This document shows, piece after piece, positions 1,656 through 52,095 of a stretch of 64,000 nucleotides of DNA. The position numbers and the translations under genes were made by a program. Source of the stretch: Escherichia phage Bp7; the sequence record NC_019500.1; one strand, written 5' to 3'. Under the pieces are notes generated by a model. The model was not told the origin of the DNA. It did no database searches and saw only the letters and a list, made by a program, of their open reading frames with translations. Position 1 is the first letter of the stretch; each line of letters opens with the position of its first letter.

Positions 1656-3866
1656 ATGATTATTGAAACCGAAAAAGAACAAATCATTGGTAATGGTGCT
1701 AAGTCCACAGGCTTTACTATTCAGGCATCGCCTAAGGTCTTTAAAATTTTGTCATCAGACCTTTATAGTAATAAAGTACGTGCCGTAGTTCGTGAACTAA
1801 TTACCAACATGATTGATGCCCATATTCTAAATGGTAATAAAGAACGTTGGAAAGTACAGGTTCCTGGTAAACTGGACCCTCGCTTTGTATGCCGTGACTT
1901 CGGGCCGGGTATGAGTGATTTCCAAATTCGTGGTGATGAAAACGAAACAGGTTTGTATAACTCTTATTTCGCGTCGTCCAAAACCGCTTCTAACGATTTC
2001 ATCGGCGGCTTTGGCCTTGGTTCAAAATCTCCGTTCAGTTATACCGAAACGTTTAATATTACCTCATGGCACAATGGCGAAGTTCGCGGTTATGTAGCAT
2101 ATATGGATGGTGATGGCCCGCAGATTAAACCTACTTTCGTAGAACCTATGCAGCCAGGTGATAAAACAGGTATCGAAATCACGGTTCCTGTTGATGAAGA
2201 AGATTTCCGTAAGTTTGAAACTGAAGTTCGTTATATCATGCGGCCTTTCATTGGTCTTGGTGATGTAGACGGTGTTGAAGTTGATTATTTCCCTGAATTT
2301 GATGATTACTATCCTGTAACCACTACAAATTATGGCAGCTTCGAACGTTCAGGACTTTATGCAGTTTATGGTGGTATTGTTTATCCATTGGATTCCGCCT
2401 ATAATAAAGGCACGTGGATGCGTACTCGCCATGATGTAGTTTATATTAAATTCCCTATGGGTTCACTGGATATTGCTCCTTCTCGTGAAGTGTTGTCTCT
2501 TGATAAACGTACGATGGAAAATATTTCAACCCGTATCGAAGCACTGGATGCAGTGGTCTTTAAAAATGATACGAAGGAATGGGTTGAATCTGATAATCCA
2601 CGCCATGTTTATCGTGACCTTTCTAACCTTGGTTACAGTGCTCGTGACTATCTTACCAAAAAAGGTGGAACTAGCCTGTTTACTACAGAAAAATTGACAT
2701 ATGAGAAATTATACCAGCGTTATACCCTTCAAAACGACCTTATTAATTTAGGTGTGGTTTACGAAATCATTTCAGACCCACGTTTGAAACGAATTAAGTC
2801 AAGTGGTAATACTTCTTCGGTAGCAGGACTTAGTAATTTATTAGGCATTAATAAGAAAGAAATCCATGTTGTTTATGATGATGAAAAGGGTCGTGTGCCA
2901 CTAGTTCGAGGACTTTGGGCTCTAGCAATGGACAACAGTGCTTCGGCTAAGAAAATTGTTAAAGAGAACAATATTCCTAAATACGGAACTGACCTTATTT
3001 TTGTCGACCCAAATTCAATGTTGCAAATGCAACAACTTGAAAAGGTTAAAGAACTTTTTAAAGGTGACACAATTCATTTTTATAAAGTCTCTGAACTGAA
3101 TAAAATTGTTAAGCCATGGATTCCGGTTACTGTCCGTTCATCAGAACCGCGTCCTAAAACACCGAGTGCTTATCGTTGGTTCATTAAAGACGGGCGCTGG
3201 CAACAAGAGACCATGTATTTGACTGCTGCCGAAGCAGAAGAAATTACAGGTTATGTTCTGTTTGGCAGTCGTTCTGATATTATGGGAATGGATGAAGCTT
3301 ATGGTATCTTTGACATCAATACCACTACCATGTGTCGTATGGCTAATTTGATTGGTGCTACCGAATTCCATATCATTCGCCCTCAGATTGCCAAAAAGAT
3401 TAAAAAGTTAGGCCAATGCGAATGCTTGATGGAAGCTACATTAGAAGCTTATGCTGAAGCCTTAGACGCGGTAGATGTTGATGACTACCTTGGTAGCAAT
3501 ACTCGAGCTCGGTATTACCTTGAAATCATTGCTAAGTTCCCTCAGCTTAATTTCATGACCAAGTATTTCAGTGATAAGCCGGTAACTGAAGCATATACTC
3601 GTCTGAGTAATTTCTATGATATATTCCGTTATATGAATTTCCATGGTTATATCACTGATGATAAGCTTTCCGTTATCAAGAAAATTTGTAACAATACTTT
3701 TTTTAAGTTGACTGATAATGCTTCAAGCAACAATGATAAAATGACTGTACAGTTTGAATCTGATTACCATTTAGTTTCGGACTACATGTATCGTCGTGGA
3801 ACATCCATTACCGAGGCTTCTGTAGCTCAAATTGTTAAATTCATGAAAGCCGTGGAAGCGGCTTAA
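1656..3866 (+). CDS. rIIA: rIIA membrane-associated lysis-inhibition/exclusion protein with N-terminal GHKL-type ATPase fold
   Basis: 736 aa; N-terminal ATPase-like motifs (ELITNMIDAH, DFGPGM, GGFGLGSKS); size and position match T4 rIIA upstream of rIIB. Confidence 0.9.
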   Translation: MIIETEKEQIIGNGAKSTGFTIQASPKVFKILSSDLYSNKVRAVVRELITNMIDAHILNGNKERWKVQVPGKLDPRFVCRDFGPGMSDFQIRGDENETGLYNSYFASSKTASNDFIGGFGLGSKSPFSYTETFNITSWHNGEVRGYVAYMDGDGPQIKPTFVEPMQPGDKTGIEITVPVDEEDFRKFETEVRYIMRPFIGLGDVDGVEVDYFPEFDDYYPVTTTNYGSFERSGLYAVYGGIVYPLDSAYNKGTWMRTRHDVVYIKFPMGSLDIAPSREVLSLDKRTMENISTRIEALDAVVFKNDTKEWVESDNPRHVYRDLSNLGYSARDYLTKKGGTSLFTTEKLTYEKLYQRYTLQNDLINLGVVYEIISDPRLKRIKSSGNTSSVAGLSNLLGINKKEIHVVYDDEKGRVPLVRGLWALAMDNSASAKKIVKENNIPKYGTDLIFVDPNSMLQMQQLEKVKELFKGDTIHFYKVSELNKIVKPWIPVTVRSSEPRPKTPSAYRWFIKDGRWQQETMYLTAAEAEEITGYVLFGSRSDIMGMDEAYGIFDINTTTMCRMANLIGATEFHIIRPQIAKKIKKLGQCECLMEATLEAYAEALDAVDVDDYLGSNTRARYYLEIIAKFPQLNFMTKYFSDKPVTEAYTRLSNFYDIFRYMNFHGYITDDKLSVIKKICNNTFFKLTDNASSNNDKMTVQFESDYHLVSDYMYRRGTSITEASVAQIVKFMKAVEAA

Positions 3867-3880
3867 TCTAAGGAAATATT

Positions 3881-4849
3881 ATGTACAATATTAAGTGTTT
3901 GACCTCCGCTGAGCAAGTTGAAATCGTTAAGTTATATATTTCTGGTAATTATACTCAGAATGAGTTGGCTGACTGGTACAGTGTATCAGTTGATACAATC
4001 CGTAAAGTCCTGAAAAATGCTAAAGGAGCTGGACAGGCCCAGGTAGTTATTACCGGAAATATCAAAGTAACAGTTCCTAACGAGCCTCGTGAAGTTCCCG
4101 TTGAAGTTACTATTGGCGGCTCTCGCCCTGAAATTATCTGGAACGCGAGTTCTAAATTCGTATCCATCACTGAAGGTCGTACAGTATGGAACACCACTAA
4201 TAAGAACAAACATTTTGATGCCATCGTACAGGCTCTTAAAGAATCTCGTTTCGATGACGCGATTAAACTGATTTCCATTAAAGAAGCCGTTAAGGCCTTT
4301 GTTAAAGGCAACGTTCGTATTGAAGGTGGACGTCTGGTTTACCAAGGCATTGAATTGCGTTCAGGGTTGATTGACCGTATTATCACTTCAATGGAAAACG
4401 GTGAAGACTTCGAATTCTACCTGCCGTTCCTTGAGAACCTGTTAGAAAACCCAAGCGAAAAAGCTGTACAACGTTTGTTCGACTTCTTGGTGGCAAACGA
4501 CATCAAAATTACTGAAGATGGTCACTTTATTACGTGGAAGGTGGTTAACTCCGATTACACCGACTGCCGTACCGGTACGTTTGATAACTCACCAGGCAAA
4601 CCGGTTAAAATGCCTCGTTCTCGTGTAAATGACGATGATGAAGTAACCTGTTCAAGTGGTCTGCACGTTTGCTCTCGTAGTTATATCGGTCATTTTGGTA
4701 ACTCAAGCTGTAAAGTGGTTTCATGTAAAGTTAACCCACGTGATGTTGTTAGTATTCCGGTCGATTACGGTGATGCTAAAATGCGTGTATGTTATTATGA
4801 AGTTCTAGAAGACGTCACCGAACAGTTCGCAAACGAATACAAATACTAA
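3881..4849 (+). CDS. rIIB: rIIB protein
   Basis: 322 aa immediately downstream of rIIA; T-even rIIB size and synteny. Confidence 0.85.
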   Translation: MYNIKCLTSAEQVEIVKLYISGNYTQNELADWYSVSVDTIRKVLKNAKGAGQAQVVITGNIKVTVPNEPREVPVEVTIGGSRPEIIWNASSKFVSITEGRTVWNTTNKNKHFDAIVQALKESRFDDAIKLISIKEAVKAFVKGNVRIEGGRLVYQGIELRSGLIDRIITSMENGEDFEFYLPFLENLLENPSEKAVQRLFDFLVANDIKITEDGHFITWKVVNSDYTDCRTGTFDNSPGKPVKMPRSRVNDDDEVTCSSGLHVCSRSYIGHFGNSSCKVVSCKVNPRDVVSIPVDYGDAKMRVCYYEVLEDVTEQFANEYKY

Positions 4850-4886
4850 ATCAATAACGGAGGCTTCGGCCTCCTAATGAGGAATT

Positions 4887-5084
4887 ATGTTAGGTTACCA
4901 AGCACGTGTAGTTGAAGAATACGACCAGTTGGTTCTTAAAATTAACGCACTAGAAACCTTTATTGAAGGTGGTGTTTTTGAAACTCTTGATATCCGTCAA
5001 CAAGGGTTACTGATTGCACAACTGGATGCGATGGGCGCTTATGCTCATTGTTTAGAGGTTCGTATTTCTTATTTCGGTGAGTAA
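4887..5084 (+). CDS. hypothetical small protein
   Basis: 65-aa ORF after rIIB hairpin (ggaggcttcggcctcc). Confidence 0.35.
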   Translation: MLGYQARVVEEYDQLVLKINALETFIEGGVFETLDIRQQGLLIAQLDAMGAYAHCLEVRISYFGE

Positions 5085-5385
5085 AATGATTAATTACCTG
5101 AATGTCGGTGAACGTGATATCAAGATTTCTAATTTGCGTGGATTCCATAAAGCAGGTACTGTTTATTGTGCTAAGCTCGTTAAACACCCGGGTGATGTTC
5201 ATTACGCTTTTCTAGAATGCGATGAGGTGGTCGAAGGCGAATTTCCTTTAGCAGATTCTGATACTTTAGAACCCGACGACCGAATTTATTACGGTGAACT
5301 TCATATTCGAGGCATTTATGGTGAAGACGAACCCGGGACTACTCCGATTGGCAGCGATGCCGACATTTACCCTGAAGACATCTGA
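5077..5385 (+). CDS. hypothetical protein
   Basis: 102-aa ORF overlapping preceding stop. Confidence 0.4.
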   Translation: MSKMINYLNVGERDIKISNLRGFHKAGTVYCAKLVKHPGDVHYAFLECDEVVEGEFPLADSDTLEPDDRIYYGELHIRGIYGEDEPGTTPIGSDADIYPEDI

Positions 5386-5398
5386 TTTAACAGGTGAA

Positions 5399-5875
5399 AT
5401 GAAGGTTAAGATTAAGGATACCGTATTGTATTCCTTAAGCCAAGACCCGTCCCAAGATAAGAAAGAAGTATTGACTCGGTGTGTCATTGCAACGTATGCC
5501 GAGTACATGGTTGCTGATTGGTTGAAAGGATATGTTAACAGTGGTCTGGAAGACCATGACGACCCTTATACCTATGCATGGGATGTTTTAGCTCATCCTA
5601 TGTATTGTGGACTACGTGTAGAGGTCAAGACCCATCAGTCGGATTCTAAGTGGATTTCCTGCACTACAGGATACTCCGGTGACTTCCCTTATGGAACAGG
5701 GATTAACCTGGGGCCGCTCTTGAATCATAAAGTTGCAGATTGTATAATTATATTCGACACTTCGGTAAATGAGGCAGGCGATGTCCTGTTCACTCCTAAG
5801 TTCTCTGGTGACAGAGAAGCCATCACAAAGCTAGTCCGTAAGAGCAATTACAACGGCTGGTATCTCGCCTTATAA
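5399..5875 (+). CDS. hypothetical protein (158 aa); sits where denB lies in T4 but identity not verifiable
   Basis: ATG 5399 with SD aggtga; in-frame part of six-frame ORF 5294..5875. Confidence 0.45.
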   Translation: MKVKIKDTVLYSLSQDPSQDKKEVLTRCVIATYAEYMVADWLKGYVNSGLEDHDDPYTYAWDVLAHPMYCGLRVEVKTHQSDSKWISCTTGYSGDFPYGTGINLGPLLNHKVADCIIIFDTSVNEAGDVLFTPKFSGDREAITKLVRKSNYNGWYLAL

Positions 5876-5890
5876 TTTTTTAAAATAAGT

Positions 5891-5920
5891 GTTTACATAC
5901 GCCATGGATGGTGTTACTAT
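5891..5920 (+). promoter_or_regulatory. T4-type early promoter (-35 GTTTAC, -10 TACTAT) with conserved leader ...ctatcaactaatgaggag
   Basis: GTTTAC 5891-5896, TACTAT 5915-5920. Confidence 0.55.
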
Positions 5921-5948
5921 CTTCCTATCAACTAATGAGGAGAACAAA

Positions 5949-6215
5949 ATGGATATCAAATTATATTACGCTAAACACAAAGTTACAGGTATGGTTGTTG
6001 CCGCTATGTATGACGCGTCGGGTGAAGGTGATGATGTTACTACAGAGTTATCTCTTTCTGATTGTAAATTTCTCCGTCCCTTAATCGCATCAAAGGAAGA
6101 TTTAGAAAAGCTTATTGATGGAAAACTGGATAATGTTGACGGCATAGATATTCTTTATGACCTCCGCACGGCATTGTACAGGGGATTGATTGAGATAAAA
6201 GAGGTGGTGTTTTGA
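5949..6215 (+). CDS. hypothetical protein (88 aa)
   Basis: ATG 5949 preceded by SD gaggag in conserved leader. Confidence 0.45.
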   Translation: MDIKLYYAKHKVTGMVVAAMYDASGEGDDVTTELSLSDCKFLRPLIASKEDLEKLIDGKLDNVDGIDILYDLRTALYRGLIEIKEVVF

Positions 6216-44220: not shown

Positions 44221-44436
44221 ATGGTTAAGAAATTGATTCAGAAATTATTAGGTACGGAAATGGTCGAAGTGACTTATCGTGTGACTGATGTTTCTCCTCA
44301 TACGGCAGACCATTTAGAACCTTATATCATGACAATTAAAATGGCCAAATATGACGGTGGTTTATCCATTGAAGACCGTCTGCCAGGTTACGGGCATTGG
44401 GCTGATGTCGAAATTATAAGTGTCAAAGATGTCTGA
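44221..44436 (+). CDS. hypothetical small protein (71 aa)
   Basis: tightly packed between neighbours. Confidence 0.4.
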   Translation: MVKKLIQKLLGTEMVEVTYRVTDVSPHTADHLEPYIMTIKMAKYDGGLSIEDRLPGYGHWADVEIISVKDV

Positions 44437-44887
44437 GTTAGAAATCAGAAGTAATTTTCCGTGGCCATCGTGTGCATTAAGTAACTTTGCTAAATGGCCT
44501 TTCGTTATGGATGGTATCCAATTTGGAGGGCTCGAAGGATTCCTCCAAGGGTGTAAGGTGAGAAATCATGAACAACAAAAACGTATATTTGGGATGTCCG
44601 GTCTGGCCGCACAACAAACTGGAAGAGCTTATGCAAGAGCTGCGGACCGTGGGACGCTTTTCTGGCTTGGAATTCCCTTTTCAAGATACTCTACATCATG
44701 GAAAGAGTTGTATACAAATGCATATTTTGAAGCAGCGCTCCAAAACAAAGGATTCCGCGACGCATTACAAGCTACAAAGGGCAAAGTTTTAAAGCATTCG
44801 ATGGCGAGCCACCTTACAGAATGTGATACAATACTAACTGAAAAAGAGTTTATCGACATCCTAAACAAATTGAGAGATTTATTATGA
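44420..44887 (+). CDS. YbiA/NADAR-like (DUF1768-type) protein, putative N-glycosidase / ADP-ribose-processing enzyme
   Basis: N-terminal core SNFAKWPFVMDGIQFGGLEGFLQGCK resembles the YbiA/NADAR signature (SNF..WP...DG......EHYFQ..K); call is from memory of the family. Confidence 0.5.
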   Translation: MSKMSELEIRSNFPWPSCALSNFAKWPFVMDGIQFGGLEGFLQGCKVRNHEQQKRIFGMSGLAAQQTGRAYARAADRGTLFWLGIPFSRYSTSWKELYTNAYFEAALQNKGFRDALQATKGKVLKHSMASHLTECDTILTEKEFIDILNKLRDLL

Positions 44888-45812: not shown

Positions 45813-47336
45813 ATGATTTTAGATATTTTAAACGAAATTGCTGCTATTGATTCTACTAAAGCTAAAGAAGCCATTATTGCTCGTGAAAAGGACAATGAGC
45901 TTCTGAAACGTGTTTATCGTATGGCTTATACCCGTCGTCTGAACTACGGTATTAAAAAGTGGCCAGAACCTGGATTTACATCTCAATCCTTTGGTATGAT
46001 TACTCTTGAAGACCTTCTTGATTTCGCTGAATTCACATTAGCCACACGTAAGATTACGGGTAATGCGGCTATTGAAGAACTGGCTCAAATCATTGCTGAT
46101 GCTAAGGCCCCGGATGCCGAGGTATTACGTCGTGTAATGATGCGCGACCTTGAATGTGGTGCATCGATTTCTATTGCTAACAAGGTTTGGAAAGGTTTAA
46201 TCCCTGAACAACCGCAGATGTTGGCGAGTTCTTATGATGAAGCTTTGATTAAGAAAAATATTAAATGGCCAGCGTTTGCTCAATTAAAAGCTGATGGCGC
46301 TCGTTGTTTTGCTGAAGTTCGTAACGATGGTGTGACATTCCTTACTCGTGGTGGTAATGAATATCAAGGGCTTAATCTTTTGGCGGCTGAATTAATGGCC
46401 ATGACCGAAGAAGCTCGCCAGCGCCATCCTAATGGTGTTATGATTGACGGTGAATTAGTTTACCATACTCCTAAGGTAGAACCTAAAGCATCTAATGATT
46501 TGTTTAGTATGTTTGATGAGGAACTTCCTGAATTAAGTAAGGCTAAGGAATTCCAAACTGTCGCCGATCGTTCTACGTCAAATGGATTGGCTAATAAGGC
46601 TCTTCAAGGAACTATTACTCCAGCCGAAGCAGCCGGTATGGTATTACAGGCGTGGGATTATGTCCCATTGGATGTCGTATATTCCGAAGGTAAAATTAAA
46701 GGCGATAAGTATGATGTACGCTTTACAGCCTTAGAACTTATGGTTGCTCATAATGTCGTATTGCATGGTGCAACGCGTGTTGAAGCTATCGAAAACCAGT
46801 GGGTTAATAATCTTGAAGAAGCTAAAGTTGTTTATAAGAAATATGTCGACCAGGGCCTGGAAGGCATTATCCTTAAGAACATGGACTCCTACTGGGAAAA
46901 CCGCCGTTCTAAGAATCTTATCAAGTTCAAAGAAGTAATCGATATTGCTTTAGAAGTGGTAGGTTATTATGAACACTCGAAGGACCCTAACAAACTTGGT
47001 GGTGTCGAGTTGGTATCGCGTTGTCGTCGAATTACAAGTGACTGCGGTTCAGGCTTTAAAGATACCACCCATAAGAAAGATAAATCAGGTAAAAAGGTAT
47101 TAATTCCATTGGAAGACCGTCCTGATTTAGACCGTGAACTTCTTATGAAACAAGCTCGTGAAGGTAAGTTGATTGGACGTATTGCTGACTGTGAATGTAA
47201 TGGTTGGGTTCATTCTAAAGGACGTACTGATACTGTAGGTATTTTCCTTCCAATCATTAAAGGTTGGCGTTTCGATAAAACAGAAGCTGATACATTTGAA
47301 GATGTATTCGGTGATTGGTCTCAAACTGGTCTATAA
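45813..47336 (+). CDS. 30: ATP-dependent DNA ligase
   Basis: about 507 aa from ATG 45813 (SD gaggtga); adenylation motif KADGARC, EGIILKN, KFKEVIDI, C-terminal FEDVFGDW; close to T4 gp30. Confidence 0.9.
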   Translation: MILDILNEIAAIDSTKAKEAIIAREKDNELLKRVYRMAYTRRLNYGIKKWPEPGFTSQSFGMITLEDLLDFAEFTLATRKITGNAAIEELAQIIADAKAPDAEVLRRVMMRDLECGASISIANKVWKGLIPEQPQMLASSYDEALIKKNIKWPAFAQLKADGARCFAEVRNDGVTFLTRGGNEYQGLNLLAAELMAMTEEARQRHPNGVMIDGELVYHTPKVEPKASNDLFSMFDEELPELSKAKEFQTVADRSTSNGLANKALQGTITPAEAAGMVLQAWDYVPLDVVYSEGKIKGDKYDVRFTALELMVAHNVVLHGATRVEAIENQWVNNLEEAKVVYKKYVDQGLEGIILKNMDSYWENRRSKNLIKFKEVIDIALEVVGYYEHSKDPNKLGGVELVSRCRRITSDCGSGFKDTTHKKDKSGKKVLIPLEDRPDLDRELLMKQAREGKLIGRIADCECNGWVHSKGRTDTVGIFLPIIKGWRFDKTEADTFEDVFGDWSQTGL

Positions 47337-47337
47337 T

Positions 47338-47520
47338 ATGAAAGCTTATTTAGAAACCGTGGTTATTGGATATAAAGAAGGTGGGGATGTCTCCACTGCA
47401 GTGTCCCAAATTGTCCTTGAATTTGAAAATGAAATCGCGTTCGCTGATTTTAAAGATAATTTCGACCGCTATGAAAAGGGTCCTAAATTTGAAGTGTACC
47501 GTACGCTGTTAGTACTTTAA
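47338..47520 (+). CDS. hypothetical small protein (60 aa)
   Basis: ATG 47338 overlapping ligase stop; followed by terminator. Confidence 0.35.
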   Translation: MKAYLETVVIGYKEGGDVSTAVSQIVLEFENEIAFADFKDNFDRYEKGPKFEVYRTLLVL

Positions 47521-47523
47521 TAA

Positions 47524-47540
47524 AGGCCTTCGGGCCTTTT
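47524..47540 (+). terminator. rho-independent terminator (AGGCC-UUCG-GGCCU then TTTT)
   Basis: UUCG-loop hairpin plus T-run. Confidence 0.6.
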
Positions 47541-47574
47541 CTGGCATAAATAAGGTTATTAAAGAGGAATTATT

Positions 47575-49659
47575 ATGACCGAACAATTAAATGAAGTGTT
47601 TGAGTCCGAAGGCACACTGCCTACAGTAAACTTGAACCCAAAACTTAAAGTACCCCAGATTTGGAAGATTGGTGACGCAGAATCCCAATTAGTGGCGCGT
47701 ATGGTATCCTACGCTTCTGAAGGTGATGCTATTAAACAGGTTAAGATGGGTGATAAATATGCCCACGTTATCCTTATGAGCCTTTCAGCTAAAGGTTCGC
47801 CTGCCGAACTTAAAGGTGGCCTAGGCCCTACTCCCGTAGATGCGATTAATACTATTTTTGATGTGGTTTATGACCAAGTTAAAAAGCTTCGTATGGATGC
47901 CGTGATGTTCCGTTTCCCTACTAAGAAAATGAAAGGTCAAGGCCCTATCGTTCAACGGATTATCCAACGTTTGGTAGCACAGAAAACAGGTGGACGTTTT
48001 AAAGTAGTTCCGGCTATGTACCAATTTACCGGTAAACATACTTATATCCTAGTAGTTCGTAAACAGGCTGATATCGAAGATATCAAAGGTATGCCAGGAA
48101 TTAATGCCGAATTATACACTAAGGTAGATTCTGATGTCGGTGAAGTTTATATTTCTAAAAAAGAAGGCGTGCAGGTTACTAAAGAAACTGCTATTGCCGG
48201 CAGTATTGCTAAAGTTGAAGAACGTCGCACTGATAAAATGGTTATAACCAAGACTAAGATTTCTCGTCGTGCCATTGCAGCAAGTCAATCGTTAGAATCT
48301 TATCGTAATGAAAGTGAACTGTTTAAGAAATATGAAGCAAATGCCGTAGATTTTAATAAACCTGCAACAGCTCCATTAATCCCTGAGGCCCAGGAAATGG
48401 TTACTAATAACAATTCTCCCGCGGCTAAAAATAAGGTTGCTAATATAGTAGCTGAAGGTACTGCTGAAGAATTGCATTATGATTATAAAATGTTTCCTCT
48501 TCACGGTATAGGTGAAATCCAAGAGAAAATTAAAGATAAAATTCTTGCGGCCATCAAAAACGAACCTTTGACATCTGTTAAAGCTCTAGAAAAATATGCC
48601 TCTGCTATTAATACCGTTTTCGAAGAATACAAAGGTGAATGGCTGGCCCGGCATAACAAAACTCGTAAAGGCCAACCTGACGACCTCTGGAATGAATTGA
48701 CCGATGCGAAGTGGAAAGCCGCCAAGACCAAGTTCATTAAAAAACGTGTATATAGTTTTGCCGGTGTAGGTGGCGGTATTATGGTCGATATTACTATTGC
48801 TCGTGAGGGCTCTAAATATACCCCATCACAAAAGCGCGGCATCAGAGAATATTGTGGCTCAGGATATACAGACATAAATAATCTTCTTTTAGGACGCTAT
48901 AACCCTCAGAACTATGAGGTTATGGGCGAAAAAGATATCGAATCTGCAGTTAATAATTTGGATTCTGCTTTTGAAAATGGCGACCGTATACCAGAAGGCA
49001 TCACAGTTTATCGTGCACAGAGTATGACTGCTCCTATATACGAAGCACTAGTTAAAAATAAAGTGTTCTATTTCAGAAATTTTGTATCCACTTCATTGAC
49101 TCCTATCATTTTTGGACGTTTTGGTGTTACACACGCCGGTATCGGTCTTTTAGAACCGGAAGTTCGCGATGAATTGACAGTCGATAAAAATGAAGAAGGA
49201 ATAACTATTAATCCTAATGAAATAAGAGCATATAAAGAAAATCCTGATTATGTTAAAGTTCAAATAGGATGGGCTATTGATGGGGCTCATAAAGTTAATG
49301 TCGTATATCCAGGAAATCTCGGAATAGAAACTGAAGCCGAAGTTATTCTACCGCGTGGATTAATGGTCAAAGTTAATAAAATAACAGATGCTTCTAATAA
49401 TGATGGAACAACATCTAGTAATACAAAACTCATCCAAGCTGAAGTTATGACAACAGATGAGCTTCAAGAATCTGTGGTATATGATGGTGACGTACTAATG
49501 GAAACCGGCGAGTTGGTCGTATATAAAGATGACTTCGATACTTCCGAAAGCCCTGTATCTTTTGATTCATTTGTTAAATCTACACGGTTTGATGTATTGC
49601 CTCTTTTGGCTTCATGCATAGACCTCTATGACATCCCAGAAAAATTCATCCAAGGGTAA
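47575..49659 (+). CDS. alt: Alt-like ADP-ribosyltransferase, paralog 1
   Basis: 694 aa (T4 Alt 682 aa); C-terminal R-S-E ART motifs (KRGIREY, FVSTSL, ETEAEVILPRG); N-terminal region shared with paralog 2. Confidence 0.8.
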   Translation: MTEQLNEVFESEGTLPTVNLNPKLKVPQIWKIGDAESQLVARMVSYASEGDAIKQVKMGDKYAHVILMSLSAKGSPAELKGGLGPTPVDAINTIFDVVYDQVKKLRMDAVMFRFPTKKMKGQGPIVQRIIQRLVAQKTGGRFKVVPAMYQFTGKHTYILVVRKQADIEDIKGMPGINAELYTKVDSDVGEVYISKKEGVQVTKETAIAGSIAKVEERRTDKMVITKTKISRRAIAASQSLESYRNESELFKKYEANAVDFNKPATAPLIPEAQEMVTNNNSPAAKNKVANIVAEGTAEELHYDYKMFPLHGIGEIQEKIKDKILAAIKNEPLTSVKALEKYASAINTVFEEYKGEWLARHNKTRKGQPDDLWNELTDAKWKAAKTKFIKKRVYSFAGVGGGIMVDITIAREGSKYTPSQKRGIREYCGSGYTDINNLLLGRYNPQNYEVMGEKDIESAVNNLDSAFENGDRIPEGITVYRAQSMTAPIYEALVKNKVFYFRNFVSTSLTPIIFGRFGVTHAGIGLLEPEVRDELTVDKNEEGITINPNEIRAYKENPDYVKVQIGWAIDGAHKVNVVYPGNLGIETEAEVILPRGLMVKVNKITDASNNDGTTSSNTKLIQAEVMTTDELQESVVYDGDVLMETGELVVYKDDFDTSESPVSFDSFVKSTRFDVLPLLASCIDLYDIPEKFIQG

Positions 49660-51714
49660 ATGATGGAAAATTTAAACGAAGTTTTTGATAGCGATTCCGC
49701 TAAAAACTATCCAGTAATAAATCTTAAACCAGGTTCCGGTATCCCACAGATTTTCTCTATTAAAGCACCGGGTAATGATAACCTGGTTGCTCGTATGGTA
49801 TCTTATGCGTCTCAAGGAGACGCTATTAAAATGGTTAAGCCGGGCGACAAATATGTCCACGTTATTCTAATGAGTTTGTCAAGCAAGGGTGCTCCGGCTG
49901 AACTCAAAGGTGGTCTTGGTTCTGACCCACTCGGTACGCTGAATACCATTTTTGATACTGTATACGAACAAGTAAACAAACTTAAAATGGATGCGGTTTT
50001 ATTCCGTTTCCCTACCAAGAAAATGAAAGGTAAGGGCCCTACTGTTCAGCGTGTATTAGCTCGTTTGGCTATGGCTCGTACTGGTGGTAAGTTTAAAGTT
50101 GTTGATGCCATGTACCAATTCACTGGAAAACATACCTATGTTCTTTTAGTACGTCGTGGCACTAATATTGAAGATATCAAGGGTATGCCTGAAATTGATG
50201 CCGAACTTTATACTAAGGTTGAGTCCAAAGTTGGCGAAGTTTATGTTTCTAAGGAAACCGGCCAGTCCGTAAGTAAGGCCGAAGCTGTCTCGGCAAGTAT
50301 AGCTAAGGTTGAAGAGAAACGTACTGATAAGGCCGTCATTACCAAGACTAAGATTTCTCGTCGTGCTATTGCTATGTCGCAATCCTTAGAATCGTCACGA
50401 TTTGAAACTCCTATGTTTAAGAAATTTGATTCTAATGCTGCTGAATTGAATAAACCGGCTACGGCTCCTTTAATGTCAGAAGCAAATGAAATAAAGGTTA
50501 TTTCTAATTCTTTCTTGGCTTTAGAAAATACCATTAGTGCTAATACTGGTGGTATGTCGTTTAAAGACAACCTTCTTATTCCAGAAGATAAAATGGAAGA
50601 AATTAATACCGACATAAAAATGAGAGCTTTTGAGAAATTACATGGATTAAATGTGACTTCAGTAAAAGCCCTAGAAAATTATGCTTCAGTGGTTGATGAC
50701 GTCATCGAAGAATATAAAGGTCCTTGGCTTCAAAAGCTAATGGCTCAACATTCACACCTAGGTTATCACGAAGCAGTCGAGTTGGCTGAAAATTCTTGGA
50801 ATGCTATAAAGACCAAAATTATTCAACGTGAGCTGCGTGTTTACGCTCTTACCGCCGGTTGGCAATTGCATTCTATTATAGAAAATAAAGACGCGTCTCG
50901 TTATACTCCTGCCCAGAAACGTGGTATTCGTGAATATGTTGGCTCCGGTTACGAAGATATGAATAATGTTCTTTTAGGTCTCCATGACCCGAATGTAAGA
51001 AGCAGTATTCTGACTAATGAAGACATAGAAAAAGCTATCAATAACTTAGATTCTGCTTTTGAAAATGGCGAACGTCTACCACCAGGTATTACTCTTTATC
51101 GTTCCCAACGAATGATTCCTGATATTTACTTGGCTATGATTAGCAATAAAGTATTCTATTTCAGAAACTTTGTTTCAACTGCGATATATCCGAATATTTT
51201 TGGTACATGGATGACTGATTCTGGTGTTGGTCTTTTGCCTGACGAAAAACGTCGTGATGTTGCATTAGACAAATCGGATGAAGGTTTAGTATATTCGAAT
51301 AAAGATACTTTAGTAGGTATTGGTTGGGCCTTTACCGGTACAGATAAGGTAAATGTCGTTTTACCTGGTGGAGACTTGGCTCCTTCTAACGAAATGGAAG
51401 TAATTCTTCCTAGGGGTTTGATGGTCAAAATCAATAAAATTACAGATGCTTCATACAATAACGGAACTACTCGTTCTAACAATAAGTTCGTTCAAGCCGA
51501 AGTAATGACTGCAGACGAACTTAATGAAGCCGTGGTGTACGATGGTGATGCTCTGATGGAAACAGGCGAACTAGTTGTCTATAAAGAGGGTAATGAGCTT
51601 TCTTTTGATTCTTTTGTTTCTAATGAGAAGAAAAAGAAATCAGACAGAGGTCTTGGCTTGTTAGCTTCTTGTATAGATATCGACGCTCTCCAGTATAAAT
51701 TTGTACAAGGGTAG
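49660..51714 (+). CDS. Alt-like ADP-ribosyltransferase, paralog 2
   Basis: 684 aa; N-terminal region closely similar to paralog 1 (ARMVSYAS.GDAIK.VK.GDKY.HVILMSLS.KG.PAELKGGLG); ART motifs KRGIREY, FVSTAI, NEMEVILPRG; starts 1 nt after paralog 1 stop. Confidence 0.8.
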   Translation: MMENLNEVFDSDSAKNYPVINLKPGSGIPQIFSIKAPGNDNLVARMVSYASQGDAIKMVKPGDKYVHVILMSLSSKGAPAELKGGLGSDPLGTLNTIFDTVYEQVNKLKMDAVLFRFPTKKMKGKGPTVQRVLARLAMARTGGKFKVVDAMYQFTGKHTYVLLVRRGTNIEDIKGMPEIDAELYTKVESKVGEVYVSKETGQSVSKAEAVSASIAKVEEKRTDKAVITKTKISRRAIAMSQSLESSRFETPMFKKFDSNAAELNKPATAPLMSEANEIKVISNSFLALENTISANTGGMSFKDNLLIPEDKMEEINTDIKMRAFEKLHGLNVTSVKALENYASVVDDVIEEYKGPWLQKLMAQHSHLGYHEAVELAENSWNAIKTKIIQRELRVYALTAGWQLHSIIENKDASRYTPAQKRGIREYVGSGYEDMNNVLLGLHDPNVRSSILTNEDIEKAINNLDSAFENGERLPPGITLYRSQRMIPDIYLAMISNKVFYFRNFVSTAIYPNIFGTWMTDSGVGLLPDEKRRDVALDKSDEGLVYSNKDTLVGIGWAFTGTDKVNVVLPGGDLAPSNEMEVILPRGLMVKINKITDASYNNGTTRSNNKFVQAEVMTADELNEAVVYDGDALMETGELVVYKEGNELSFDSFVSNEKKKKSDRGLGLLASCIDIDALQYKFVQG

Positions 51715-52062: not shown

Positions 52063-52070
52063 ACCCCTAA

Positions 52071-52095
52071 AGGAGAGCGTACGCTCTCCTTTTTT
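52071..52095 (+). terminator. rho-independent terminator (AGGAGAGCGU/ACGCUCUCCU then T5) between convergent genes
   Basis: 10-bp perfect palindromic stem followed by TTTTT. Confidence 0.65.

Follow-up and report, generated by a model that had tools for sequence, protein, structure and literature searches.

The alt locus of Escherichia phage Bp7 raises the question whether two tandem genes for ADP-ribosyltransferases provide the phage with two different injected enzymes. In the window, that is the whole stretch of 64,000 nucleotides (nt) from sequence record NC_019500.1 analysed here, two large open reading frames (ORFs) of 694 and 684 amino acids (aa), referred to as W1 and W2, directly follow each other. 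A sequence-only reading had regarded them as Alt-type paralogs, with the suggestion that both are injected into the host and act on different substrates. According to the present analysis, there is a good likelihood that W1 and W2 are two packaged, injected and active arginine ADP-ribosyltransferases that are made late, trimmed and directed at partly different targets. This is considered the best reading because both proteins have kept the catalytic residues and the protease motifs and because the ratio of nonsynonymous to synonymous substitutions (dN/dS) is low in both genes.

W1 and W2 matched exactly the protein pair AEN93923.1/YP_007004247.1 and AEN93924.1/YP_007004248.1 of Bp7, whose database names are ADP-ribosylase or Alt-like RNA polymerase ADP-ribosyltransferase. 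By these matches, the two ORFs are the two alt genes of Bp7, a T4-like Dhakavirus. The assignment to Alt-type ADP-ribosyltransferases was confirmed by the Pfam family PF03496 (ADPrib_exo_Tox) with 121.1 bits for W1 and 91.6 bits for W2 at a gathering cut-off of 23.4, and by PHROG 802 (Alt-like RNA polymerase ADP-ribosyltransferase), which covers aa 1-693 of W1 (E = 1e-263) and aa 1-683 of W2 (E = 1e-254). In addition, the precomputed label PF26846 (Tevenvirinae_ADPRT) is attached to the N-terminal head region of W2 and to that of a protein with a W1-type head, while a profile search in NCBIfam gave no match for W1 or W2. Tandem Alt paralogs as such are already known, since they are annotated in Bp7 and its relatives and since alt duplications in T4-like phages were listed in a survey from 2006, namely, for 44RR (a second copy of full length), RB49 (ORFs) and T4 (alt.-1/alt.-2) (Nolan et al. 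2006, PMC1524935). In the T4 record, alt.-1/alt.-2 is described as what remains of a duplication that involved the first part of alt. In IME08 and JS10, the counterparts of W1 and W2 are annotated as altA and altB, and three alt copies are present in AnYang, QL01, MX01 and C6. No literature on alt copies in Dhakaviruses was found in the papers searched, which did not cover the JS98 genome paper. The points added here are the shuffling of heads and bodies between copies and genera and the coexistence of two widespread, biochemically unequal enzyme types.

Over their full length, W1 and W2 share 56% identity (BLASTP, E = 0). It amounts to 69% in aa 1-240, 36% in aa 241-410, 60% in aa 411-640 and 59% in aa 641-694. 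The N-terminal part is the most similar one, as had been read from the sequence before, but the most diverged part is the helical middle and not the catalytic domain. The distance between the genes, previously given as 1 nt, is 0 nt: the TAA of W1 ends at 49659 and is directly followed by ATGATG, with the first ATG of W2 at 49660. With the second ATG as the actual start of W2, which is how FB and AnYang are annotated, the gap would be 3 nt. An AAGGG is located upstream of ATGATG within the 3' end of W1.

Full-length W1 was modelled with AlphaFold2 (predicted local distance difference test (pLDDT) 84.6, predicted template modelling score (pTM) 0.75). The model consists of four parts, namely, an alpha/beta head to approx. 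aa 200, a helical region (aa 203-410), an ADP-ribosyltransferase domain (aa 411-625) and a tail of low confidence from approx. residue 630 (block means 44-75). When compared with the PDB by Foldseek, it retrieved solely ADP-ribosyltransferase toxins (Vis, CDTa, Ia, C3, VIP2 and Certhrax) with E-values between 3e-8 and 1e-5. A solved structure of Alt was not found by sequence search, in which CDTa and Ia were the best matches (E about 1e-3). W2 is expected to adopt the same fold, as its ADP-ribosyltransferase domain shares 60% identity with that of W1 and 77% with that of T4 Alt.

In HMMER alignments to CDTa, the catalytic Arg was located at R480 in W1 (GITVYR) and R481 in W2 (GITLYR), opposite LTVYRR of CDTa and each directly behind an aromatic residue (Y479 and Y480, respectively). 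KRGIREY, which had been proposed as the Arg motif, lies in the helix preceding the core. The Ser and Glu motifs had been read correctly. W1 has S505-T-S507 and E587-A-E589, while W2 has S506-T-A508 and E578-M-E580, with E-x-E aligned to E-Y-E of CDTa. No variation was seen in a family alignment of 61 sequences at the Arg, at the first Ser of S-T-S and at the two Glu of E-x-E. By profile match, motifs and fold, the pair belongs to the R-S-E mono-ADP-ribosyltransferases (cholera-toxin group, Alt/VIP2 clade). A loss of catalytic residues in one paralog, which had been named as an argument against two enzymes, was not seen, as W2 differs at the third position of S-T-S alone. The E-x-E motif, which both copies have, is common in arginine-modifying enzymes. 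Nucleic acids as targets, another former suggestion, are not indicated; T4 Alt attaches NAD-capped RNA (NAD, nicotinamide adenine dinucleotide) to RNA polymerase to only a slight extent in vitro (PMC10468400).

In T4, the prohead protease gp21 cleaves Alt at ITE-6 and LTE-619, so that 63 C-terminal residues are removed and 68.2 kDa are left (mass spectrometry, PMC5694885). About 40 copies are contained in each head and ejected (PMC9026906), and virions of a member of the genus Rb69virus were found to contain an Alt orthologue (PMC6563131). Judged by their motifs, the corresponding sites in Bp7 would be LNE-7 in both proteins, LQE-632 in W1 and LNE-623 in W2, which are L-x-E motifs aligned to those of T4. 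A Glu was found at the N-terminal site in 65 of the 70 family representatives and at the C-terminal site in all but one of the 59 representatives (of 70) that reach this column. The predicted mature proteins have 69.4 kDa and an isoelectric point (pI) of 8.7 for W1, and 68.2 kDa and a pI of 7.8 for W2, whose mass equals that of mature T4 Alt. Before removal of the acidic tail, the calculated pI is about 6. This switch from acidic to basic may play a role beside the packaged DNA, or it may reflect an enzyme that is held inactive before cleavage. The predicted C-terminal propeptides are strongly acidic and share a conserved pattern, F..F...LA...P.KF.

Alternatively, one of the two proteins might be packaged and the other act late inside the producing cell, like the unpackaged ModA and ModB of T4. 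These are short enzymes of about 200 aa without an Alt head, whereas W1 and W2 both retain the full head, both protease motifs and the tail pattern, and W2 has no promoter or spacer of its own. The division of labour would be compatible with the experimentally defined signals for head loading of Alt, which comprise a short propeptide (PMC5694885). Taken together, it is very unlikely, and packaging of both W1 and W2 is preferred.

Selection was estimated by the Nei-Gojobori method between orthologues, with W1 compared to IME08 altA, AnYang-1 and FB-1, and W2 compared to FB-2. Because dN/dS was between 0.02 and 0.16 in all four segments of both genes (head, middle, catalytic domain and C-terminal propeptide), neither gene is decaying and both are, by this measure, under purifying selection.

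W1 and W2 sit between DNA ligase/alt.1 and alt.-3/gene 54, which is the position of Alt in T4 (30 - alt.1 - alt - alt.-3 - 54). Upstream of W1, a hairpin AAGGCCTTCGGGCCTT was found that also occurs at the equivalent location upstream of T4 alt; a conserved terminator upstream of alt was noted before (Nolan 2006, PMC1524935). It is followed by the box CATAAATA, which resembles the T4 late promoter consensus TATAAATA. The homologous position of T4, between hairpin and alt, carries TATAAATA without a mismatch, while no exact TATAAATA was found upstream of W1 or W2. Promoter-like sites of the sigma-70 type were as frequent in the locus as expected (14 found, 14.4 expected), with none just upstream of W1 or W2 on the plus strand, and neither a spacer nor a promoter-like site was seen before W2. 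Probably, both genes are transcribed late as one unit from the late-type promoter behind the conserved hairpin, with W2 starting at the stop of W1. The precursors of 76-77 kDa would be built into the prohead core and cut by the prohead protease after LNE-7 and LQE-632 (W1) or LNE-623 (W2), yielding basic mature enzymes of approx. 69 and 68 kDa. These would be ejected into the cell along with the DNA and would use NAD+ for the mono-ADP-ribosylation of arginines in host proteins via the R / S-T-S / E-x-E site.

Comparison with related loci indicates that each gene is composed of an N-terminal head of about 232 aa and an exchangeable enzyme body, joined just past a KISRR motif. The first 242 aa of W1 were modelled separately (AlphaFold2, pLDDT 87, pTM 0.85) and form an alpha/beta domain followed by three helices. 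The W1 head shares 97-100% identity with those in slot 1 of the other Dhakaviruses examined, and the W2 head (aa 1-235) is 89-91% identical to those of IME08 altB and of genes 2 and 3 of AnYang. At the nucleotide level, W2 and IME08 altB are 84-96% identical as far as approx. codon 220 and approx. 45% identical past codon 240. For W2 and T4 alt, the change is in the opposite direction, from 42-60% before the junction to 62-79% behind it. In a per-codon view, the switch falls right behind the KISRR codons, and the megablast matches of six Dhakaviruses end at window position ~50365.

A search with the W2 head in 1.84 billion representatives yielded 69 proteins, nearly all of 600-712 aa and with the head at residue 1. 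The remotest matches were unnamed metagenome proteins; a repetitive fish protein among the remote matches is probably spurious. PF03496 was present on 59 of the 70 aligned members of the head family, the others being short fragments or proteins without a Pfam match, and no cargo other than ADP-ribosyltransferases was found among these 70 members on heads detectable by sequence. The head itself had no match in a local Pfam-A, even at E-values up to 10. In BFVD, its matches included Alt homologues and, in several other myoviruses, large uncharacterised proteins, a few of them with other named domains. Other large myoviruses may also use the head fold as a delivery module.

The bodies fall into different types, here called A, T, B and C. 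The W2 body (T) is closest to T4 Alt with 60% identity in the middle and 77% in the catalytic domain, compared to 34 and 64% between W1 (body A) and T4 Alt. Between W2 and W1 the values are 36 and 60%, and between W2 and the B and C bodies only 16-21 and 39-40%. The array composition was typed in ten loci. In all ten, slot 1 holds head NA with body A. The later slots hold head NB with body B in JS10, IME08, IME281, IME341 and CLB_P2, with C and then B in QL01 and AnYang, and with T in Bp7 and FB; body T also occurs in IME540 and Ec2-ASingh. At 60-80% amino acid identity, body A was found in 319 phage records, with several Tequatroviruses among the matches listed, and body T in 176. As body A is the one with more records and the Tequatrovirus teqskov carries an A-like body in slot 1, the well-studied T4 enzyme may represent the less common type.

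In teqskov, the first gene combines a T4-type head (98%) with an A-like body (78%). The second gene has a B-like body (54%) on another head, which shares 68% identity with the head of T4 Alt and 89-96% with the alt.-1/alt.-2 remnant of T4 (T4 alt.-2/alt.-1 at 3066-3451 and the second alt of teqskov at 3902-5959 of their locus sequences). From this identity of the remnant to a full-length slot-2 head it follows that T4 has, as far as the sequences tell, lost the body of its slot-2 gene rather than gained a partial duplicate. Neighbour-joining trees were incongruent: heads grouped by genus and bodies by type across genera, with 100% bootstrap for each of the groups A, T and B and for W2 with T4. 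The trees therefore indicate different histories of heads and bodies, and the Bp7 pair represents, on this evidence, an A + T combination drawn from an old repertoire of four or more enzyme types.

A natural recombinant was found on the metagenomic contig ERZ17811656 (ENA, positions 325-2370), where a single alt lies between alt.1 and alt.-3. Its codons 1 to ~205 are of W1 type (82-100% nt identity) and the rest is of W2 type (mostly 94-100%), so that it appears to have arisen by deletion, in an unequal crossover between the tandem genes. Two possible recent events were considered and rejected. Gene conversion between the heads of W1 and W2 does not agree with their nt identity of 53-74% and saturated synonymous divergence, and identities of 62-79% (nt) and 68% (aa) are too low for a T body newly acquired from a T4-type phage.

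Concerning the targets, W2 is likely the counterpart of T4 Alt by its body, and its loop before E-x-E (PGGDLAPSNEME) differs from that of T4 (PGGSLAPSNEME) in one residue. T4 Alt modifies R265 of the RNA polymerase alpha subunit, R84 of MazF and at least 27 proteins in all (PMC8120803); with MazF, the idea of a host-defence target, which had been raised for the Bp7 pair, is already known for T4 Alt. The target range of W1 is probably partly different from that of W2 because W1 has another loop before E-x-E and another helical region. Different substrates for the two enzymes, as suggested previously, are plausible on these grounds. The injection of both, also suggested then, is supported indirectly by the Alt head, protease motifs, catalytic residues and purifying selection that the two have in common.

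W1 and W2 could instead be redundant, both packaged and active on essentially the same host proteins, with the duplication serving dose or robustness. Their catalytic domains are 60% identical with E-x-E in both, T4 Alt alone modifies its 27 or more proteins, and the single NA + T gene in the metagenome implies that a phage can do without the A-type body. However, the A and T bodies are only ~54% identical overall and 36% in the middle, differ in the loop before E-x-E and are each conserved over two genera (78% between W1 and slot 1 of teqskov, 68% between W2 and T4), and both genes are under strong purifying selection. Full redundancy is thus unlikely, and two enzymes with partly different targets remain the preferred reading.

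Several points weigh against this reading. An overlap between the targets of W1 and W2 is likely, and may be heavy, because T4 Alt itself is promiscuous. The fold model covers W1 only and the W2 fold is assigned by homology. The box CATAAATA has one mismatch to the late consensus, and such one-mismatch matches are no more frequent in the window than by chance (124 found, 151 expected), so that it is the position of the box that speaks for it. For Bp7 and other Dhakaviruses, the literature searched, in which the JS98 genome paper was not covered, yielded neither virion proteomics nor transcript data nor enzymology. Finally, the Ala at the third position of S-T-S in W2 is the sole case among the 70 family representatives and was seen in 3 of 122 close relatives. 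It is present in the metagenomic chimera, while the FB sister allele has S-T-S on a body that is 94% identical. Because of this unique Ala and the Ser in FB, a somewhat lower activity of W2 owing to A508 is possible. Taken to the extreme, W2 would be a weakened or non-catalytic pseudo-enzyme with a role as a decoy, as a structural component of the head or in binding. As R481, S506, E578 and E580 are intact and the Ser is kept on the closely similar FB body, this is extremely unlikely, and W2 is preferably regarded as an active enzyme next to W1.

The arrays can be summarised as [N1+T][remnant] for T4, [N1+A][N2+B] for teqskov, [NA+A][NB+T] for Bp7, [NA+A][NB+B] for IME08, [NA+A][NB+C][NB+B] for AnYang and [NA+T] for the metagenomic contig. 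A tentative generalisation, for which the odds are slightly less than even, is that the alt locus provides T-even-type phages with an array of injected effectors that can replace one another. Heads of ~232 aa, specific for genus and slot and probably fitting the phage's own head core, would be joined at a fixed KISRR junction to one of at least four old bodies (A, T, B and C) shared across genera. By recombination there, isolates would receive different combinations, which would then be selected by local host targets or defences, much as in polymorphic toxin systems.

The features of the locus are compiled in the table. The closest genome in the phage collection was that of the Dhakavirus vB_EcoM_FB with 94.7% identity over 5.2 kb (megablast). 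The alt.-3 homologue lies directly downstream of W2; mutations by which the C-terminus of its T4 counterpart becomes longer enable T4 to escape the defence system CmdTAC (PMC11618068). Further upstream, a 74-aa ORF (44568-44792) is nested in another frame within the 30.3 homologue (44420-44887) and mirrors gene 30.3' in 30.3 of T4.

Features of the Bp7 alt locus (window coordinates).
Feature	Position	Strand	Basis or remark
alt.1 homologue (flank)	47296..47520	+	phrog_1976; alt.1 annotated in IME08 and JS10; starts of relatives further downstream
Hairpin AAAGGCC-TTCG-GGCCTTT directly after alt.1 stop	47522..47539	+	sequence reading
Late-promoter-like box CATAAATA	47545..47552	+	7/8 match to T4 late consensus TATAAATA; positional
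W1, Alt paralog 1, head NA + body A	47575..49659	+	ORF listing of the window; identical to Bp7 YP_007004247.1
W1 N-terminal propeptide, predicted, aa 1-7, ends LNE	47575..47595	+	aligned to T4 ITE-6
W1 head domain	47596..48270	+	ends at KISRR, aa 228-232; AlphaFold2 model of aa 1-242
W1 helical middle, aa 233-410, most diverged segment	48271..48804	+	all-helical in model; 36% to W2
W1 ADP-ribosyltransferase domain, aa 411-632	48805..49470	+	Pfam match aa 379-627; Foldseek
W1 active-site codons	R480 49012-49014; S505 49087-49089; E587 49333-49335; E589 49339-49341	+	
W1 acidic C-terminal propeptide, predicted, aa 633-694	49471..49656	+	after LQE-632; aligned to T4 LTE-619
W2, Alt paralog 2, head NB + T4-Alt-type body T	49660..51714	+	ORF listing of the window; identical to Bp7 YP_007004248.1
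W2 N-terminal propeptide, predicted, aa 1-7, ends LNE	49660..49680	+	motif alignment
W2 KISRR codons, aa 231-235, head/body recombination junction	50350..50364	+	identity switch
W2 ADP-ribosyltransferase domain, aa 411-623	50890..51528	+	Pfam; 77% identity to T4 Alt
W2 active-site codons	R481 51100-51102; S506 51175-51177; A508 51181-51183; E578 51391-51393; E580 51397-51399	+	
W2 acidic C-terminal propeptide, predicted, aa 624-684	51529..51711	+	after LNE-623
alt.-3 homologue (flank), 96 aa	51772..52062	+	phrog_1739 and annotation in relatives
Terminator-like hairpin after alt.-3 homologue	52069-52092		terminator scan

Tandem paralogs as such matter little, being annotated in Bp7 and present in the T4-like literature since 2006. 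To our knowledge, biochemical work has been done solely on the T4 enzyme, which is of T type, and the body types A, B and C are unstudied. Phages like Bp7, with two body types side by side, are a natural system for asking which targets each type has. The modularity of heads and bodies also suggests a practical route for loading chosen enzymes into T4-type heads.

Among the known systems, T4 Alt (gpAlt, P12726) shares with W1 and W2 the gene position, the length class of 682 aa, the three-part layout, the R / S-T-S / E-x-E residues and the two protease motifs. It resembles the body of W2 in particular (60-77% by segment) and is grouped with it in the body tree. It differs in its head, to which those of W1 and W2 are 43-47% identical, and in that T4 has one alt and the alt.-1/alt.-2 remnant compared to two full genes in Bp7, where the W1 body is of another type. 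The Dhakaviruses JS10, IME08, AnYang and QL01 have the genus and the locus in common with Bp7; W1 is 96-97% identical to IME08 altA and the first alt of AnYang, and the slot-2 heads are 89-94% identical. The difference lies in the second gene, which has body T in Bp7 but B (JS10, IME08, IME281, IME341 and CLB_P2) or C plus B (AnYang and QL01) in the others, a body T with more than 90% identity to that of Bp7 being found only in FB, IME540 and Ec2-ASingh. The phage teqskov has, like Bp7, a two-gene array at the same locus with an A-like body in slot 1, but its heads are of the T4 genus type and its slot-2 body is B-like and not T.

The internal proteins IPI-III of T4 are, like Alt, packaged, processed by the protease and ejected, and combine a conserved targeting part with variable cargo (PMC9026906). 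Their targeting propeptide of 10-20 residues is removed, whereas the Alt head of ~230 aa stays in the mature protein. ModA and ModB of T4 resemble W1 and W2 as tandem, diverged phage ADP-ribosyltransferases of the R-S-E type, and their targets differ from each other. Unlike W1 and W2, they are short; they are encoded by early genes and are not packaged, and ModB also attaches RNA chains to proteins (PMC10468400). Enzymes of the binary-toxin and C3 type (CDTa, iota Ia, VIP2, C3 and Vis) have the catalytic fold and motifs in common with W1 according to Foldseek and HMMER, but they share only 14-21% identity, are delivered as secreted toxins and carry neither an Alt head nor protease-processed tails.

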